Below are positions 3,712-35,489 of a stretch of 64,000 nucleotides of DNA, in pieces (the first letter of the stretch is position 1; the number at the start of each line of letters is the position of its first letter). The notes beneath the pieces were generated by a model. The model was not told the origin of the DNA. It saw nothing but the letters and a program-made list of their open reading frames with translations, and searched no databases. This DNA comes from Gemmatimonadales bacterium (GTDB lineage Bacteria > Gemmatimonadota > Glassbacteria > GWA2-58-10): the NCBI GenBank assembly GCA_024278175.1, contig JAJRTS010000058.1:8693-72692 (forward strand), read 5' to 3'. Made by a program: the position numbers and the translations under genes.

Positions 3712-5259
3712 CTAACTGCCCAGTTCGTAGAGCATCCTGGCCCCGCAGGACGGCTTGAGCGCCAGCAGAGGCGAGGCCGATTTCTCGCGGTAGCGAAGGT
3801 GGGCTTCGGGGTAGGCGTGGATCGCGTCCTCGAAGTAACGCTGACGGACCTCGGCCATGAAGCTTTCCAGCTTGTGATCCGCCACCAGGCTCACGGTGCA
3901 GCCCCCGAACCCGGCCCCGGTCAGGCGGCTGCCCGCGGCCCCGGCTTCCAGGGCGATCGCCACCAGGTCGTCGATAGCCGGATGGCTGATCTCGTAGTTG
4001 TCCCGGCAACTGTAATACGACTCGTTCATCAGGCGGCCGAACCACTGTCCGTCGCCGTTATGCAGCGCCTCCAGCGCCTGCTCCACCCGGCCGGTCTCGG
4101 TGACCACGTGACGGGCCCGGGCCAGCAGTTTGTAGCCGCAGTCGGGTTCGGGGATCGTCTCGCCATCGACCGAGCCGCCGAAGCGCTGTTCGAACTGCTC
4201 CAGCGTGATCCCCAGTTCAGCCGCAAGCTCCAGCCTGGAGTAGCCGTGCCATTTGAAATGCTTTTTCATCTCCGTCAGCAGTCGCTCCGGTCCCAACTCG
4301 TAGAAGATATCGCCCAGCCGGCGAATTTTGGTGCTGTCGAGTTCCAGACGGCGGCAGAGCAGCGCGGTGGCCAGTTTACAGACCGTGTGCCTGGTGTTGT
4401 AGGCGATCTTGGCGTTGAGCGTCTTGGCCGCCTCCACCATCGAGTTGGCTACCACCACCGTGTAGTCCGGGGGCAGGGGAGTAGTCTGGACCCGCAACGG
4501 GAAGAAATCGATTTTCAGCGCCATGTCCTTCTCGCCCAGCAGGCTGACCGCCTGATCCATTTCCCCGCAGTCGATCCCGGTGTACTGCTCGGCGCGCGCC
4601 ATCGCGCCGGCCAGCTCCACGGGCTCCATCTCCAGGCCTGCCACCCGCAGGGCTGTCATCCCGGTGGCAACCACCAGGCTGCTGCTGCTCGAAAGCCCCG
4701 CGCTGGTGGGCAGCACTCCGTAAAAGCAGGCGTTGAACCCGCGAGTCACTTTTTTCCGACCAACCGAGTCGATAATCCCCTGCACGCCGGCCACAACGTA
4801 GTTGCCCCAGTCGCCCGAGGAGTAGCGCTCGATTTTCCCGGCCAGCTCGAACTCCCTGTCCGGGAACTCGGGGTTGACAATTTTTACCAGGTTGTCCTCG
4901 CGCGGCGAGAAAGCGACCAGAATATCGTAGTCGATCGCCATCGGCATCACCGGCAGGCCGTTGTAGTCCGTGTGCTCGCCGATCAGGTTCACCCGTCCCG
5001 GGGCGCGCAGCACGCCGACATCGCTCTCACCAGGGAAACGTTCGGCGAACGTGACCAGCAACCGGGTCAGGTGGTCGGTTACCTCGGTGTTGTTGTAGAT
5101 CTCGCCCAGCGGCCCGGTAACCTGGGGGTACCTGTTTTTCAGGCCGTTGAGCACTTCCTGGAGTTTCATTTTTTTGTCCGGGGAAAAATTAAAAAGAGAA
5201 CGCATTGCCTCGTAGCGAGCCGCGGGCAATTTCCACTTACTTTCCGAATGGGCCGCCAA
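3712..5259 (-). CDS. galK: galactokinase-family GHMP kinase (long form)
   Basis: Galactokinase signature GRVNLIGEHTDYNG and GHMP motif PTSAGLSSSSS; start uncertain (TTG at 5259, ATG at 5205 or 5169). Confidence 0.75.
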   Translation of the reverse strand: MAAHSESKWKLPAARYEAMRSLFNFSPDKKMKLQEVLNGLKNRYPQVTGPLGEIYNNTEVTDHLTRLLVTFAERFPGESDVGVLRAPGRVNLIGEHTDYNGLPVMPMAIDYDILVAFSPREDNLVKIVNPEFPDREFELAGKIERYSSGDWGNYVVAGVQGIIDSVGRKKVTRGFNACFYGVLPTSAGLSSSSSLVVATGMTALRVAGLEMEPVELAGAMARAEQYTGIDCGEMDQAVSLLGEKDMALKIDFFPLRVQTTPLPPDYTVVVANSMVEAAKTLNAKIAYNTRHTVCKLATALLCRRLELDSTKIRRLGDIFYELGPERLLTEMKKHFKWHGYSRLELAAELGITLEQFEQRFGGSVDGETIPEPDCGYKLLARARHVVTETGRVEQALEALHNGDGQWFGRLMNESYYSCRDNYEISHPAIDDLVAIALEAGAAGSRLTGAGFGGCTVSLVADHKLESFMAEVRQRYFEDAIHAYPEAHLRYREKSASPLLALKPSCGARMLYELGS

Positions 5260-7447: not shown

Positions 7448-8284
7448 ATGGCTGAACTGTTATTCGGTACAGGGGGAGTGCCGCACTCGGCCAGGGACAG
7501 GAGCGGGCTGGCGGGAATCCGTCGGATCGCCGAGCTGGGCCTGGGAAACCTGGAAGTGGAGTTTGTCCACGGGGTGCGAACGGGCGAGGAAAAATGCCGT
7601 CTCTACGGGCAGACCGCCCGCGAGCTGGGCGTGGCCCTGACCTGCCACGGGCCCTACTATGTCAACCTTAACTCCAACGAGCCGGAGAAGAAAGAGGCCA
7701 GTATCCGGCGCGTGCTCAACACAGCGCGGGCCGCGTACTGGATGGGCGCGGAGAGCTACACGTTCCACGCCGCCTTTTTCATGAAGCAGGACCCGGAGCA
7801 GGTTTACACCGTGGTGCGCGAGGCCATCGAGCGGATCATGGAGGAGATAGACCGGGAGGGGATAGCCGGTCCGAGACTCAGCCCGGAACTGACCGGCAAG
7901 CCGACCCAGTGGGGCAGCCTCGGGGAGTTGATCCGGCTCTGTCAGGATGTAAAGGGCGTGCATCCCTGTATCGATTTCGCCCACGCCCACGCCCGCAGCG
8001 GCGGAGCGGAGAACAGCTACGATGAGTTCTGCGCCACCCTGGAAGCGATAAAAAGCGAACTGGGCCGGCAGTACCTGGACCGTCTGCACATTCACGTGTC
8101 CGGGATAGAATACGGCCCCAAAGGCGAACGGCACCACCTGGTGCTGCAGGAGAGCGACCTGAAGTACGAGGAGTTGCTCCGGGCCCTGCGAGACTACGAG
8201 GTGGGCGGAACGGTGGTCTGCGAAAGCCCCAGCCTGGAAGAGGACGCCGCGCTGATGAAGGCGGCGTATGAGAAGCTCGGTTAA
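7448..8284 (+). CDS. endonuclease IV (Nfo/AP_endonuc_2) family TIM-barrel protein
   Basis: Nfo-like blocks (YYVNL..., FHAA, HPCIDFAHAHA, HIHVSG...GERHH); RBS GGGAGGAG. Confidence 0.6.
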   Translation: MAELLFGTGGVPHSARDRSGLAGIRRIAELGLGNLEVEFVHGVRTGEEKCRLYGQTARELGVALTCHGPYYVNLNSNEPEKKEASIRRVLNTARAAYWMGAESYTFHAAFFMKQDPEQVYTVVREAIERIMEEIDREGIAGPRLSPELTGKPTQWGSLGELIRLCQDVKGVHPCIDFAHAHARSGGAENSYDEFCATLEAIKSELGRQYLDRLHIHVSGIEYGPKGERHHLVLQESDLKYEELLRALRDYEVGGTVVCESPSLEEDAALMKAAYEKLG

Positions 8285-15307: not shown

Positions 15308-15984
15308 CAGCGGGATTGTTTTACCAGCAGGGGTACGTTACGGGCGATATATTCGACAGCCGAGGCCACCGAGAGGCCAACCACCACCACTATCAGCACC
15401 CAGTTCAGTTTGTAGTGGAACGAGTCGAACCACGCGAACGCCCAGGCGGGATGCTCGGCGATCATTTTGCTGTTGGCCATGTGGGATATCAGCGAGCCGA
15501 TAAAGAACATCTGCAATACGGTTTTGAACTTGGCCAGGCGGCTGGCGCTGAACACTTTGCCGGTCCACATCGAGTAGTAGCGCAGCAGGGTGATCAGCAA
15601 CTCGCGGCCCAGCAGGATAACCAGCACTTCGATCGTTACCATCTTGAACATCGGCACCGTGGCGCTCAGCATGTAGAACGGGATCAGCGTGGCGGCCAGG
15701 ATCAGCTTGTCGGCCACCGGATCGACAAACTTGCCGAACGTGGTGATAGTGCTGTGGCTACGGGCAAGCTGGCCGTCGTAGACATCTGTCATCCCGGCGA
15801 TAACGAACAGGTAGTAAAGCAGTACATACTCCCCGTAGGAGTCCGCTCTCAGGATCATCCAGAACAACACCGGCGCCAACAGGATCCGCAGTATCGTGAG
15901 CGCGTTGGGAAGGTGGCGCATCAACGGGCCGCAGGGGGGGCGGGCCTTATCCGTGGAGTCTCTGTCCGTATCCTGTTTATTCAC
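15307..15984 (-). CDS. pgsA: CDP-diacylglycerol--glycerol-3-phosphate 3-phosphatidyltransferase
   Basis: CDP-alcohol phosphatidyltransferase motif DVYDGQLAR...G...DPVADK; real start possibly ATG at 15921. Confidence 0.8.
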   Translation of the reverse strand: MNKQDTDRDSTDKARPPCGPLMRHLPNALTILRILLAPVLFWMILRADSYGEYVLLYYLFVIAGMTDVYDGQLARSHSTITTFGKFVDPVADKLILAATLIPFYMLSATVPMFKMVTIEVLVILLGRELLITLLRYYSMWTGKVFSASRLAKFKTVLQMFFIGSLISHMANSKMIAEHPAWAFAWFDSFHYKLNWVLIVVVVGLSVASAVEYIARNVPLLVKQSR

Positions 15985-16577
15985 AGGTTGTGCCTTCCAT
16001 GCAGTGCCTGGCTGATAGTCAGCGCGTCCATGTACTCCAGGTGACCGCCGGCGGGCAGACCGCAGGCGATCCGGCTGACCCTGACCTGGCTGCCGTTAAG
16101 CATTTGCTGGATATACAGCGCGGTGGCGTCTCCCTCCACGCTGGGGTTGGTGGCGACAATCAGCTCGTTGATCCTGGGCCGGCTGGTTTCTATTCTCTGT
16201 TGCAGCTTGCCGAACGAGAGCTCGTCCGGGCCCATGCCCTCGAGCGGGCTGAGCCGGCCGCCCAGCACATGGTAGAGTCCGCGATAGCTGCCGCTGGTTT
16301 CGATCGCGCGGATATCCGATGGTTCCTCCACCACGCAGACCACCGTTCGCTCACGGCGCTCATCGCGGCAGATATCGCAGGGGTCTTCCTCGGTGATATT
16401 GCCGCAGCGGGGGCAGAAAAACACGTTGTCGCGGAGCTGCCCGATTGACTCGGCCAACTGGCGGGCCTGCTCATCGGGGCACTTGAGCAGGTGATAGGCC
16501 AGTCTGCCCGCGGTTTTCTCACCGATTCCGGGCAGCCGGCCGAGAGATTTGATAAGCTTTTCGAGACTCCTGCTCAT
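15981..16577 (-). CDS. recR: recombination protein RecR
   Basis: HhH (LPGIGEKTA), C4 zinc finger (CPRCGN...CDIC), Toprim; start at MSRSLEKLI. Confidence 0.9.
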   Translation of the reverse strand: MSRSLEKLIKSLGRLPGIGEKTAGRLAYHLLKCPDEQARQLAESIGQLRDNVFFCPRCGNITEEDPCDICRDERRERTVVCVVEEPSDIRAIETSGSYRGLYHVLGGRLSPLEGMGPDELSFGKLQQRIETSRPRINELIVATNPSVEGDATALYIQQMLNGSQVRVSRIACGLPAGGHLEYMDALTISQALHGRHNL

Positions 16578-16587
16578 AGCGGGCCTG

Positions 16588-16917
16588 TCAACCGCCGAAC
16601 AAATTATTGAAAATACCCGGCAGCTTGACACCGCCGGTGAGCTTGCTCATTTCCTGGCCCACCAGCTCCCGGCTGTTCTCCATCGCCTTGTTCACAGCCG
16701 CGCAGACCAGCTCTTCGAGCATTTCCACGTCCTTGGGGTCCACCACTTCCGGGTCGATCCTCAGCTCCAGCAACTCCTGCCGCCCGTTGACCACCGCGCG
16801 TACCATCCCGCCGCCGGCCGTGGCTTCCACCTGCCTGTTTTCCAGCTCCGACTGCATCTGCTGAAACTGGCCCTGCATCTTCTGGGCCTGTTGTAAAATC
16901 TGGTTCAGATTGTTCAT
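16588..16917 (-). CDS. ybaB: YbaB/EbfC nucleoid-associated protein
   Basis: 109 aa, canonical YbaB sequence; conserved dnaX-ybaB-recR order. Confidence 0.9.
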   Translation of the reverse strand: MNNLNQILQQAQKMQGQFQQMQSELENRQVEATAGGGMVRAVVNGRQELLELRIDPEVVDPKDVEMLEELVCAAVNKAMENSRELVGQEMSKLTGGVKLPGIFNNLFGG

Positions 16918-16983: not shown

Positions 16984-17553
16984 CTATTGTCCCAGCAGCT
17001 CCGGGTCGAAAAGTTCCTTGATTTTGCCCATCAAGGGGTCTGTTTTGCATAACTGATCGAAACTTCCGGCCGGCAGGTTTTCAGCTTCATCGTTTCCGCT
17101 CCCGGTTTGTTCAACCGGCGGTTTGAAAGTCTCGATCTCGATCTCCACCGCGTCCAGAGAGAATACCTCGCCCACGCACCGGCCGATTTGTCGGCGGGTT
17201 TGCAGGTCCTGCAAGCGGGTGGCGCTGTAGCCCTCGGCCGGTACTCGCAACTTCAACGTCCGCCCATCGTATTGCGCCGGCTCCGCCACGGCGATCTGGG
17301 TTGCCAGCCCCGGCTTGGCCTGCCTGACCGCCGCTGTCACCGCGCTCCAGTTGGAGCGGATCGCCTCGACGTTCAGCGGCCCGTCCAGCTTGAGCGGTGA
17401 TGGCCGGGGCCGCTCAAGCTCTTCCGGCTCAGGTTCCGGCGGCGATGGCGCGCTGTGCCGCGGGGGTGGCTGGGCGGTCAGCCTGGGACCGCCCTCGGGC
17501 GGCCCGCCGGTGGAGCGGGGAGGCTCAGTTACGGCCGCGCTGTTTTTTTTTTA
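16984..17553 (-). CDS. dnaX: DnaX tau-specific C-terminal region (Pro-rich linker plus tau C-terminal domain) in +1/-2 frame relative to upstream dnaX
   Basis: Frame open from stop TAA (17551-53) through the A10 run to TAG at 16984; translation KKNSAAVTEPP...Pro-rich...NWSAMTAAVRQAKPGLATQIAVAEPAQYDGRTLKLRVPAEGYSATRL matches tau C-terminal domain. Confidence 0.55.
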
Positions 17554-18721
17554 GCTGATTCTCCACCGGTTTGCCGGGCGCTGCGGGCGCCGCGTCGCCC
17601 AGGCGGGCCAGAAGGTCAGATATGTTAACGCTTTTCTCCAGCATTGTCAAACGGACCAGCAGCAGTTCCAGCGAGATTTTCTGCTGGCCGCTGAACTTGA
17701 AAATTTCCTCGAACTGGAGGATCAGTTGCAGGGAACGCACCAGGTCGTCCAACTCGAATTTTTCCGCGCACCGGCGGTAGTCATCCTGCCGCGAGCCGGG
17801 GATATCCAGCGCGGCCGGGTCCTTGACTCCCAGCCGGAAGACAATCAGGTTGCGGTAGTGACGGGCCAGCTCGGAGTAAAACTCCTCCAGGTCCACGCCG
17901 CCCGCGACCAGCTTGTCCGCGAACTCCATCGCCCCCAGCGTATCGCCGGCGGTTATCAGGTCGCTGAGCTCAAGCAGCAGGCCGGTGTCGAGCATGCCCA
18001 GCACCTGGGCGGCCCTTTCAACCGTGTAGTCGCCGTCGCAGAAAGCGATCACCTGGTCGGCCAGACTGAGCGCGTCGCGCATGGCGCCCTCGGCCTTACG
18101 GGCCACCATCTCCAGCACCTCGCGACCGATCTCAATATCCTCAGCCTTGCAGACCCGCTCCAGTTGCCCGGTAATGTCCGCGGTGGGCACGGCCTTGAAA
18201 TCGAAGCGCTGGCAGCGGCTGAGGATCGTGGGCGGCACCTTGTGGGGCGCGGTGGTGGCGAACATGAAGATCACGTGCGAGGGCGGCTCCTCCAGGGTTT
18301 TGAGCAGGGCGTTGAACGCCTCGGCGGTGAGCATGTGGACTTCGTCGATGATGTATACCTTGTAGCGGCAGGTGCCGGGGGCGTAGCCCACGCGCTCACG
18401 GAGGTCGCGGATCTCGTCGATCCCGCGGTTACTGGCCCCGTCGATCTCCAGCACGTCCAGCGAGTTGCCGGCCAGGATCGCGCGGCAGTTGTCGCACTGG
18501 TTGCAGGGATCGGCGCCGCCGCCGCCCGTGCAGTTAACGGCGCGGGCCAGCAGCCGGGCGGTGGTGGTTTTGCCCACGCCGCGCGGGCCGCTGAACAGGT
18601 AGCTGTGGCTGATCCTGTCGGCTGTAAGGGCGTTGACCAGGGTGCGTGTCACATGGTCCTGGGCCACTACCTCGCCGAACACAGTCGGCCTGTATTTTCT
18701 TGCAAGTACAATGTAGCTCAT
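17525..18721 (-). CDS. dnaX: DNA polymerase III subunit gamma-like product of dnaX (zero frame, 398 aa)
   Basis: MSYIVLARKYRPTVFGEVVAQ..., Walker A GPRGVGKTT, zinc module CNQCDNC; ends QLKKKQRGRN* four codons after an A10 run. Confidence 0.9.
   Translation of the reverse strand: MSYIVLARKYRPTVFGEVVAQDHVTRTLVNALTADRISHSYLFSGPRGVGKTTTARLLARAVNCTGGGGADPCNQCDNCRAILAGNSLDVLEIDGASNRGIDEIRDLRERVGYAPGTCRYKVYIIDEVHMLTAEAFNALLKTLEEPPSHVIFMFATTAPHKVPPTILSRCQRFDFKAVPTADITGQLERVCKAEDIEIGREVLEMVARKAEGAMRDALSLADQVIAFCDGDYTVERAAQVLGMLDTGLLLELSDLITAGDTLGAMEFADKLVAGGVDLEEFYSELARHYRNLIVFRLGVKDPAALDIPGSRQDDYRRCAEKFELDDLVRSLQLILQFEEIFKFSGQQKISLELLLVRLTMLEKSVNISDLLARLGDAAPAAPGKPVENQLKKKQRGRN
17543..17552 (-). other. 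A10 homopolymer (T10 on plus strand) at the dnaX gamma/tau junction; candidate slippage/frameshift site
   Basis: CUA AAA AAA AAA CAG in mRNA sense; one fewer A (or two more) fuses dnaX to the tau C-terminal frame. Confidence 0.6.
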
Positions 18722-19049: not shown

Positions 19050-20753
19050 TCAGTCGATCACCGGCAGCACGATATACGACGGGTATTTCTGATCGTGATA
19101 GACGGTTTGCGCGGCCTTGACCCAGCCGGTTTCCGTGGCGAAATCGTTGCCCGTGTTCAGGTTGCGGTCGAACCTGGGGAAGCTGCTGCTGGAGATTTCG
19201 ATCCTGACCATGTGCCCCTTTTTGAACAGGTTGGAGGTGGCCCAGAGGTCGATTTCGTACTTGTAGATCCGGCCGGGAACGATATTGGCCGGATCAGTCT
19301 GACCGTTGCGGAAACTGGCGCGGATAATCCCGTCGGCGATCTTGAACGCCCGCCCGTCGGGGTAAACGTCCACCAGCTTGGCGGTGAAATCCGTATTTTT
19401 AGCGCTGCTGGCCGCGTGCAGGATTACCTTGAGCGGGCCGGTGACCTCCAGATTTTTTTTCAGCGGCAAGGTTGTGTACACGAGCACATCCTCCCGGCTC
19501 TCAACCTCCCGCTGATCAGTGGGTTCCATCGGAGCCGAGGGCACCGGGTCCGCCGGGTCGTAGATGAACCGGTCGGGCGGGGAGCCGGCGTCTGCTTTGA
19601 GCTAAATTGCCCCATCGCCGCCCAGGTAGTAGTTGACATAGCGGGTGCGCGCCAGCGGCCACTCGTTTTCGAATCGCCACTGGTTGGCTCCCATCACGAA
19701 TATTTTCACCGGCGGTTCGCTTGCGATTTCGTCCTGCACGTCTTTGAGGTGGTAGTCGAACCAGCTCCGTCTGATTTCGCGGATTTTGAGCACCGACTGT
19801 TCGCCGAAATCGAGTTCGCCCACCCTGGGGCCCCGCGAGACGCCGTGGATCCAGGGGCCGATAATCAGCTTCTGCCTGGCCCTGACCTGTTCGGGGACCA
19901 CCCCGGAGGTCATCCCGATGAAATTTTGCAGAGTGCCCTGCAGGCAGATGTCGAACCAGCCGCCGACATTGCAGGCCGCCGCGGAAATTTTGTTATAGCG
20001 GCCGCGGATGGTGGTCCGGTCCCAGTACCTGTCGCGGGCGGGATGGGAAAGCCAGTCGCGCAGAAAAGGGATACGCCAGCCCAGCAGCCGGTCCTGCCCG
20101 ATCAGGGGCAGGGAGTAGAAAACCTGGTCGCGGGTCGAATCGAGATAATCCTGCGCAACAATGAACGGGGATGACATCTCGTGGCTCCAGCCGCTGAAAA
20201 GCCTCATGCGGAACGCGCCGCCCGAGTAAGCCATGTCGTGCAGGTCGCCGAAGCCCACCACCGGGAACATCGCCGTAACCCCCGGAGCGTTTTCCACCGC
20301 GGTGATCCACTGGGTATAGCCCACGTAGGAGCCGCCGATCGTGCCGATCCGCCCGTTGCACCAGGGCTGTTCTCCCAGCCAGAGCTGCGTATCGTAACCG
20401 TCCGGGCCCTCGTTTTGCATCGCGTCGAATACGCCCTCGCTCTCGAAGCGGCCGCGCACGTCCTGCAGCACCACGGCATAGCCCCGGGAGGCGAAATAGT
20501 GGCCCGTGTCGCTGCCCGGCCCCCCGTTGCCGTAGGGAGTGCGCATCAGCAGGGCCGGGAAGCGTCCCCGGGCATCGGGCCGGTAGATATTGGCCGAGAG
20601 CCGGACGCCGTCGCGAAGTTCCACTTTCACGTCCAGCTCCTCGATAACCGGGTACAGCGAGTCGGCGGCCCCGGCGACTGCGCGCTCGGGCGCAAGAGTC
20701 AGCAGGGGCAGGATAAGACACAGACGGAAAGCAAAACGCAACAGGCGGTTCAT
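19050..20753 (-). pseudogene. CocE/NonD family hydrolase (secreted), interrupted by a single in-frame TAG at 19602-19604; fragments 19602..20753 and 19050..19544
   Basis: N-terminal alpha/beta hydrolase part and C-terminal CocE_NonD domain are in the same frame; translation across the stop reads ...GGDGAI*LKADAGSPPDRFIYDPADPVP... Confidence 0.6.
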
Positions 20754-35211: not shown

Positions 35212-35489
35212 AGTCTCATCCTCCTGTGTGCCCATTCGAGTTTTGTTTTTGTCCTCAGTGGCCGGTTGTAGCAGGTGCGTCTTGACATCCGCACGGGCTA
35301 TCGCTTATCTTAAAGGCGTCCCAGGTCCACAGGACAAAAGCTCGCTAACCCCGTCAGGACCGGAAGGTAGCAGCGGTATGCTTGTAGCTTTTGTCGCTGT
35401 GGGAAGCCTGGGACATTTTTTTTCTCCCCTCCGGCTGGTTCCCCCGGCGCTGGTCCGTGCTATTCCAACCTGAACACGGAGAGCACCGG

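Follow-up and report, generated by a model that had tools for sequence, protein, structure and literature searches.

How can a cell obtain tau, the long product of dnaX, from a gene whose tau-specific part lies in a different reading frame from the remainder of the gene? This question is raised by a dnaX gene found in a stretch of 64,000 nucleotides (nt), referred to here in its whole length as the window, from a metagenome-assembled genome (MAG) of Candidatus Glassbacteria (NCBI phylum Candidatus Glassiibacteriota). A run of ten A residues (A10) divides the gene into a gamma-like open reading frame (ORF) and a second region, in the +1 frame, with the tau-specific part. The anatomy of this site, its conservation in relatives and the relations between the frames are read directly from the DNA. 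They suggest that the A-run is very probably a programmed slippage site, with the anatomy, judged by analogy, of the transcriptional slippage site of Thermus dnaX. The slippage itself, the ratio of its products and the authenticity of the extra A in the window we infer. The elements of the gene are the following:

18721..17525, minus strand: zero-frame ORF of dnaX, 398 amino acids (aa), gamma-like, with DnaX domains I-III only (from the ORF list and Pfam)
17543..17552, minus strand: the A10 run of the coding strand (plus strand, T10), the proposed RNA polymerase slippage site
17551..17553, minus strand: TAA closing the +1 (tau) frame just 5' of A10, with which it shares the first two As
16984..17550, minus strand: tau-specific region, 188 codons long and read in the +1 frame, with a Pro-rich linker, a DnaX_C-like domain and a DPLMGKIKELFDPELL tail
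17525..17527, minus strand: TGA, the frame-0 stop, which transcripts with 10 or 13 As would use (product ending ...KKKQRGRN)
17529..17531, minus strand: TAA, the -1 frame stop, which transcripts with 11 or 8 As would use (product ending ...KKKTARP)

The 398-aa ORF begins with an ATG at 18721 and closes with the TGA at 17527-17525, its C-terminal end being ...ENQLKKKQRGRN. Around the run the coding strand reads ...GAG AAU CAG CUA AAA AAA AAA CAG CGC GGC CGU AAC UGA, and frame 0 terminates four codons 3' of A10. The +1 frame, translated across the run, gives ...RWRIS, a stop and then KKNSAAV; after the run it continues as KKNSAAVTEPPRST...DPELLGQ up to a TAG at 16986-16984, and its DPLMGKIKELFDPELL tail is conserved. 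Both the zero-frame ORF with its stop four codons after A10 and the other frame, open for 188 codons from a TAA at the 5' side of the tract, are in the sequence as the initial annotation had described them. The 398-aa ORF matches three Pfam families, PF13177 (E=2e-46), PF22608 (E=8e-16) and PF12169 (E=2e-15). The match to PF12169, which is domain III, ends at residue 367, and it is this that places the run at the gamma/tau boundary. The sites of Escherichia coli and Thermus also lie directly after domain III of DnaX (PMC1088944).

Computed variants of the run length show what each transcript would encode. Nine As fuse the two parts into a 578-aa protein and twelve into one of 579 aa, with LKKNSAAVTEPPR or LKKKNSAAV as the predicted tau junction peptides, which bears out the earlier claim that removing one A, or adding two, joins the parts. 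Runs of 10 or 13 As give 398 or 399 aa, ending in ...KKKQRGRN, and runs of 8 or 11 As give 396 or 397 aa, ending in ...KKKTARP. The second short product expected on adding one A is therefore obtained (A11, 397 aa), but it ends in ...LKKKTARP, the KKKKTARP first written for it having one K too many.

The claim that the other frame carries the C-terminal part of tau is supported by homology. The fused 578-aa sequence aligns over 100% of its length with full-length Candidatus Glassbacteria DnaX proteins (P0001-P0003), at 75-82% identity, and P0122 is about 92% identical to the window tau over the C-terminal 291 residues. The match of the C-terminal part to Pfam DnaX_C (PF20964) is weak (E=0.2, 12 bits, for a cut-off of 26.2); two more distant homologues that align with it along their full length, P0007 and P0011, exceed the cut-off in the corresponding region, with 26.8 and 28.0 bits. 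In an AlphaFold model of the C-terminal part, an alpha/beta core is predicted with a local distance difference test score (pLDDT) of 70-88 over residues 160-250 of alignment A1, for a mean pLDDT of 56.7, and the Pro-rich linker is predicted to be disordered. Searched against folds in the PDB, this model gave weak matches, the best of them DnaA domain I and the DUF721 domain of DciA, with E no better than 0.013, and none at E of 0.001 or less; a profile search of PDB sequences with the tau C-terminal part returned no relevant match. It is the homology to full-length DnaX proteins, and not a direct domain match, that gives the region its label "tau-specific". Against the closest relative (L004, below), the ratio of non-synonymous to synonymous substitution rates (dN/dS) of this part is 0.39, in or close to the 0.27-0.38 spanned by intact pairs of the clade, and the tau-specific part shows no sign of relaxed constraint.

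In the databases the window dnaX is annotated as two pieces: P0004, of 385 aa, starts with the GTG at codon 14, and P0121 has 118 aa. The two pieces fall in one 90% protein cluster together with P0122, an intact DnaX of 565 aa from another assembly. The two non-overlapping fragments are joined in the cluster through the intact protein, and the representative of the cluster is a truncated piece; therefore, searches by representative can hide split genes such as this one. The possibility that the 118-aa C-terminal ORF is translated separately, as a functional split tau, was considered and rejected: the product would have no covalent link to the clamp-loader domains, and such an arrangement is found in no relative.

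What happens at the same site in relatives is central to how the run is to be understood. The comparison at the DNA level covers six loci, the window and five independent relatives (L003 is a second assembly carrying the sequence of L002). The codons at the site, the length of the run and the frame of tau are as follows:

Window: CAG CTA AAA AAA AAA CAG; A10; tau in frame +1
L004 (GCA_054474455.1): CGG TTA AAA AAA AAC AGC; A9; tau in frame 0, intact
L007 (SDBV01000033.1): CAG CTA AAA AAA AAC AGT; A9; tau in frame 0, intact
L001 (GCA_054474335.1): GCG CAA AAA AAA AAC AGT; A10; tau in frame 0, intact
L002 (GCA_019456185.1; L003 is Logan SRR8799001): GAA CTA AAA AAA AAG AGC; A9; tau in frame 0, intact
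L011 (JGI contig Ga0124853_1097352, run at 422-429): GGT GTA AAA AAA AGG TGA; A8; tau in frame -1

L004 is 96% identical to the window in nucleotides over dnaX and 92-95% identical over 16 kb. L007 shares 70% of the amino acids over the C-terminal 291 residues, L001 and L002 share 80% and 75%, respectively, and L011 shares up to 53% (best tblastn segment of a match that is split between frames). In L011, frame 0 terminates at once (VKKR, then a stop) and the run lacks one A for the tau frame, so that all three frame relations, 0, +1 and -1, occur within the clade. P0001 (82% identity), which is known at the protein level, reads ...PQKKNSTV... at the site. No K-run is seen at this place in Glassbacteria of 63% identity or less, which encode tau in a single frame. 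Scans of genome and metagenome contigs added L007 and L011 as new close relatives, the other matches being distant Glassbacteria without the run. The site arose within a narrow subclade, since the more distant Glassbacteria do not have it. Neither the 398-aa ORF nor the 385-aa or 118-aa piece nor ybaB, looked up as exact sequences, led to an independent assembly of the same strain on record.

Several features of these loci indicate that the run is kept by selection. A run of 8-10 As is present at the same site in six of six loci, it is kept between genomes that have diverged by 0.75-1.1 at synonymous sites of this part of the gene, and the linker just upstream of it is poorly conserved and hardly alignable across loci. 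Moreover, the codon before the run ends in A in all of them (CTA, TTA, CAA or GTA) although the residue changes (Leu, Leu, Gln or Val, respectively); in the window, CTA makes up 1.2% of the Leu codons, and AAA 43% of the Lys codons. Stops in both of the non-tau frames lie 1-5 codons after the run, again in six of six loci, for a background of about 3% stops per codon. The stops themselves turn over: in the window, L004, L001 and L002 the TAA and the TGA together form a TAACTGA motif, whereas L007 has a TAG and a TAA, and L011 two TGAs. Because the run is kept across this divergence, because rare codons extend it, and because early stops occur in both frames and have been replaced, not just inherited, it reads as selected, and it is very probably a programmed slippage site as far as sequence comparison can tell.

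Two further elements were noted next to the run. A strongly conserved peptide, TEPPRxTGxxPxGGPRLTAQP, stands right after the slip site in the otherwise variable linker (at about 17470-17527 on the minus strand of the window, and in L001, L002, L004 and L007), and the codons for its PPxGGP part make a small hairpin, CCGCC-N4-GGCGG, some 45 nt beyond the run.

How would such a site work? By analogy with dnaX of Thermus thermophilus, the nascent RNA would realign during transcription of the template T-run, giving rise to mRNAs with variable numbers of As. Transcripts that have the downstream part in the tau frame would direct synthesis of full-length tau, and the others would yield a gamma-like protein of domains I-III, with a stop 1-5 codons later. 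In most members of the clade the templated length would itself give tau, as in the Thermus layout. The window allele is one A longer, and the templated A10 message would give the 398-aa gamma-like protein; tau, of 578 or 579 aa, would come solely from transcripts with 9 or 12 As, and those with 11 or 8 As would produce the variant of 397 or 396 aa.

Slippage by RNA polymerase is favoured here over frameshifting by the ribosome because no conserved stimulatory structure accompanies the run, because a Shine-Dalgarno-like GGAG is not kept, because the runs are 8-10 nt long and because all three frame relations occur in the clade. If the ribosome were mainly responsible, the relatives would shift by -1 on A_AAA_AAA or A_AAA_AAC to make gamma, and the window by +1 or -2 to make tau. 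X_XXY_YYZ heptamers do lie within the run, and the GGAG found 10-13 nt upstream of it in the window, L004 and L007 recalls the Shine-Dalgarno-like stimulator of E. coli dnaX; that element, however, is absent from L001, L002 and L011. When 50 nt upstream and 90 nt downstream of the run were folded in the six loci, no significant or conserved stimulatory RNA structure was found (z of -0.01 to -1.5 relative to shuffled sequences, the fold energies being like those of the shuffles), nor is there a stem-loop within a few nt downstream. Runs of 8-10 nt exceed what a heptamer needs, and runs of at least 8 nt together with mixed frame directions are criteria for transcriptional realignment (Antonov et al. 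2013, PMC3711429). In addition, A_AAA_AAA and A_AAA_AAC are described in the literature as much less shifty than A_AAA_AAG in E. coli, and for an efficient +1 or -2 shift on an A-run with the common codon CAG after it, no driver seems obvious. A mainly ribosomal mechanism is thus improbable in our judgement, though the ribosome may contribute.

Whatever the machinery, the window allele itself can be understood in more than one way, and we put at about even the chance that its A10 is a real length variant at a slippage site, in which case transcripts carrying 9 or 12 As would be the source of tau. The extra A would then be fixed or dominant in the sampled population, and the cell would tolerate it since all three frames are provided by slippage at the site in any case. 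The initial annotation had rightly named a homopolymer indel as the alternative, and it is quite possible, although we rather doubt it, that the extra A is a miscount (introduced by sequencing, by polishing or by the consensus of a mixed population) in a gene that truly has A9 (CTA AAA AAA AAC) and is of the Thermus type. No homopolymer of the window is longer than this run, the sole one of more than 8 nt, which makes it the most error-prone site. The context in L007 is identical (CAG CTA A9 C), and the protein predicted for A9 (...QLKKNSAAVTEPPRSTGG...) agrees with P0122 and P0001 at every residue near the junction. It had also been proposed that a relative with A9 and an intact tau ORF would mark the extra A as a sequencing error. 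L004 is such a relative, but it is a different genome, and its A9 does not prove an error in the window. Moreover, along the approximately 16 kb aligned to L004 no uncompensated 1-nt indel other than the extra A falls in coding sequence, the other homopolymer differences being intergenic, and all the other homopolymers of 7-8 nt in genes of the window leave the ORFs intact. Consensus errors at A10 are uncommon in short-read assemblies, and the sister assemblies look like fragmented short-read MAGs, with contigs of 18-23 kb. Finally, a second off-frame allele, in the opposite direction, is present in L011 (A8), which implies that the frame relation either varies in the clade or is repeatedly miscalled.

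Other observations weigh against a real A10 variant, in part the same ones that would favour a miscount. One A in the run is the sole indel between L004 and the window in the 1.7 kb of dnaX, just the picture that a miscalled homopolymer would give, and tau is in frame 0 in all four relatives with complete dnaX DNA, as well as in P0001 at the protein level. L011, which would be the second off-frame allele, is a 1.8-kb contig, possibly of low coverage. The window needs a shift of +1 (one A fewer or two more), whereas the published dnaX genes in which tau lies in a second ORF are all of the -1 type (Antonov et al. 2013). A +1 shift requires a 1-nt deletion or a 2-nt insertion, which is the direction less well served, so the window allele would be a poor producer of tau; on A-runs, according to reporter work, bacterial RNA polymerase makes insertions in preference to deletions. 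Nor is the length of A10 by itself rare enough to be significant in 64 kb, as at least two A9 matches occur in 9 of 100 dinucleotide shuffles of the window; the significance of the run derives from its position and its conservation in relatives, not from its length alone. A more radical view would deny the run any programmed role: an A-rich Lys linker formed by chance would have suffered a real, inactivating frameshift, in a decaying genome or as a population variant, and no functional tau would be made from the locus. The adjoining Peptidase_S15 gene, which has an in-frame TAG in the window, does attest to real gene defects nearby. However, tau couples the polymerase to the clamp loader, and it is needed for that; the tau region is open for 188 codons with a dN/dS like that of intact relatives; and the run, the rare codons flanking it and the double stops are kept, with turnover, across the clade, unlike what is expected of a chance linker. 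Inactivation is, in our estimate, most unlikely, and a pseudogene reading of the window dnaX was rejected on the open tau frame, the dN/dS and the conserved run and stops. In any event, whether A10 is a real variant or a miscount, the object of biological interest is the conserved slippage site.

Single lineages show further elements near the run. A 6-bp hairpin (AACCGG...CCGGTT) abuts its 5' side in L004 (about 7611-7629), and an 8-9-bp hairpin (GCCGGCTGC/GCAGCCGGC) ends 5 nt before it in L002 (about 4138-4156); no comparable upstream hairpin was found in the window or in L001. Upstream hairpins stimulate transcriptional slippage in some insertion sequence (IS) elements. By analogy, those of L004 and L002 may modulate the efficiency of slippage in each lineage.

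The gene order downstream of dnaX is that of a conserved dnaX-ybaB-recR arrangement, and the two genes that follow are:

16588..16917, minus strand: ybaB/ebfC, the next gene of the arrangement (PF02575; same order in relatives)
15981..16631, minus strand: recR, a mechanically called ORF of 216 aa with a GTG start, overlapping ybaB by 44 nt (Pfam RecR domains)

The true start of recR is probably an internal ATG (MSRSLEKL...), since the RecR proteins of relatives have 198 aa. On the other side of dnaX, a Peptidase_S15/PepX gene (19050-20753, minus strand) is interrupted by the in-frame TAG mentioned above, at 19602-19604, which leaves ORFs of 383 and 164 aa. The site of the TAG is GCG in L004, and the difference therefore consists of two substitutions and not of a homopolymer indel. 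The gene is a single one of 576 aa in L004 and L001, and a remnant of 63 aa in L002; judging from these sequences, that of the window is probably a true pseudogene, its lineage being in the course of losing the gene. Elsewhere in the window, a small signal recognition particle (SRP) RNA (RF00169, 60.7 bits) is encoded at 35319-35416 on the plus strand, followed directly by a T8 run at 35416-35423 that is probably part of its terminator; it does not lie beside dnaX, unlike in some other phyla.

These observations describe a recoding site in a candidate phylum in which this kind had not been noted, and they would add one candidate phylum to the short list of lineages that obtain tau and gamma from dnaX by way of slippage at a homopolymer. 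Should the off-frame alleles be real, close relatives would directly show how a single nucleotide flips which product needs the slip, a situation considered by Atkins et al. 2016 in principle only. We tentatively suggest, as a possibility worth entertaining and not as the probable state of affairs, that the length of the run is naturally polymorphic in the subclade and that tau may lie in any of the three frames because slippage supplies them all. An essential gene would in this manner be buffered against indels of +/-1, the length of the run would set, or phase-vary, the ratio of tau to gamma, and the dnaX of the window would be the first to have tau at +1. There are also practical consequences. 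Annotation pipelines call an essential dnaX of this kind broken or split in two ORFs, as with P0004 and P0121, and quality checks of MAGs may score the run as a frameshift error.

The closest parallel is dnaX of Thermus thermophilus, in which slippage on a T9 template produces mRNAs with varying numbers of As and nearby stops in both of the other frames lead to gamma (PMC1088944, PMC5009743). The window shares with it a run of 9-10 As right after domain III, close stops in both alternative frames and a genome of high GC content, where runs of this sort are unusual, and the Thermus layout is found exactly in L004, L007, L001 and L002, with tau in one ORF. The window itself differs in that its templated length yields the short product, leaving tau dependent on a slipped transcript, and in that it belongs to an unrelated candidate phylum. 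An inversion of the Thermus arrangement, with the gamma-like product in frame 0 and tau in +1, was what the initial annotation had seen in it. This is correct for the window sequence as it stands, but it is not the usual state of the clade, since four relatives encode tau in one frame through A9 or A10, and a layout of this kind had already been described. In a set of 17 two-ORF dnaX genes from 12 genera, tau needs recoding; the frame transition in the DNA is -1 in all of them, so that one extra A restores tau (Antonov et al. 2013, NAR 41:6514, PMC3711429). A10 is found in 9 of the 17, in Chlorobium, Flavobacterium, Cytophaga, Capnocytophaga, Coraliomargarita, Prosthecochloris and Pelodictyon; genes of this type from Chlorobi, Bacteroidetes and Verrucomicrobia occur in finished genomes, and transcriptional realignment was proposed for them (PMC3711429). 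As in these genes, the gamma-like frame 0 of the window ends just after the poly-A run and the tau part follows in another frame. The split is fixed across genera there, whereas the four closest relatives of the window verified at the DNA level have a single ORF and the split is not conserved; L011, with A8, fits the -1 type, the direction of the published genes. What sets the window apart within this known kind is thus the +1 direction and the unsplit state of its closest relatives.

That slippage can serve a +1 arrangement is known from tssM1 of Citrobacter rodentium, in which an A11 run precedes a full-length product encoded in the +1 frame, transcripts carry 10-15 As and the full-length form makes up 20-25% of the product (PMC4256274). 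The window likewise has its full-length product in +1 after a long A-run, although the gene and the organism are different, and slippage, which was demonstrated experimentally for tssM1, is inferred for the window. Frameshifts in poly-A tracts are also known from dnaX of Blochmannia and from other genes of endosymbionts, and rescue by transcriptional slippage was proposed (PMC3017870). There, too, a real 1-nt homopolymer indel affects an essential replication gene, within the tau-specific part in this instance. The genomes concerned, however, are AT-rich and decaying, with many such tracts, and the site is no conserved recoding site, whereas the genome of the window has 60% GC and the run is conserved at the gamma/tau boundary. 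Lastly, the -1 ribosomal frameshift of E. coli dnaX acts in the same gene and at the same boundary and also draws two products from one gene. The clade differs from E. coli in having no conserved AAG heptamer (AAG occurs in L002 alone), no conserved upstream Shine-Dalgarno-like element and no downstream stem-loop.

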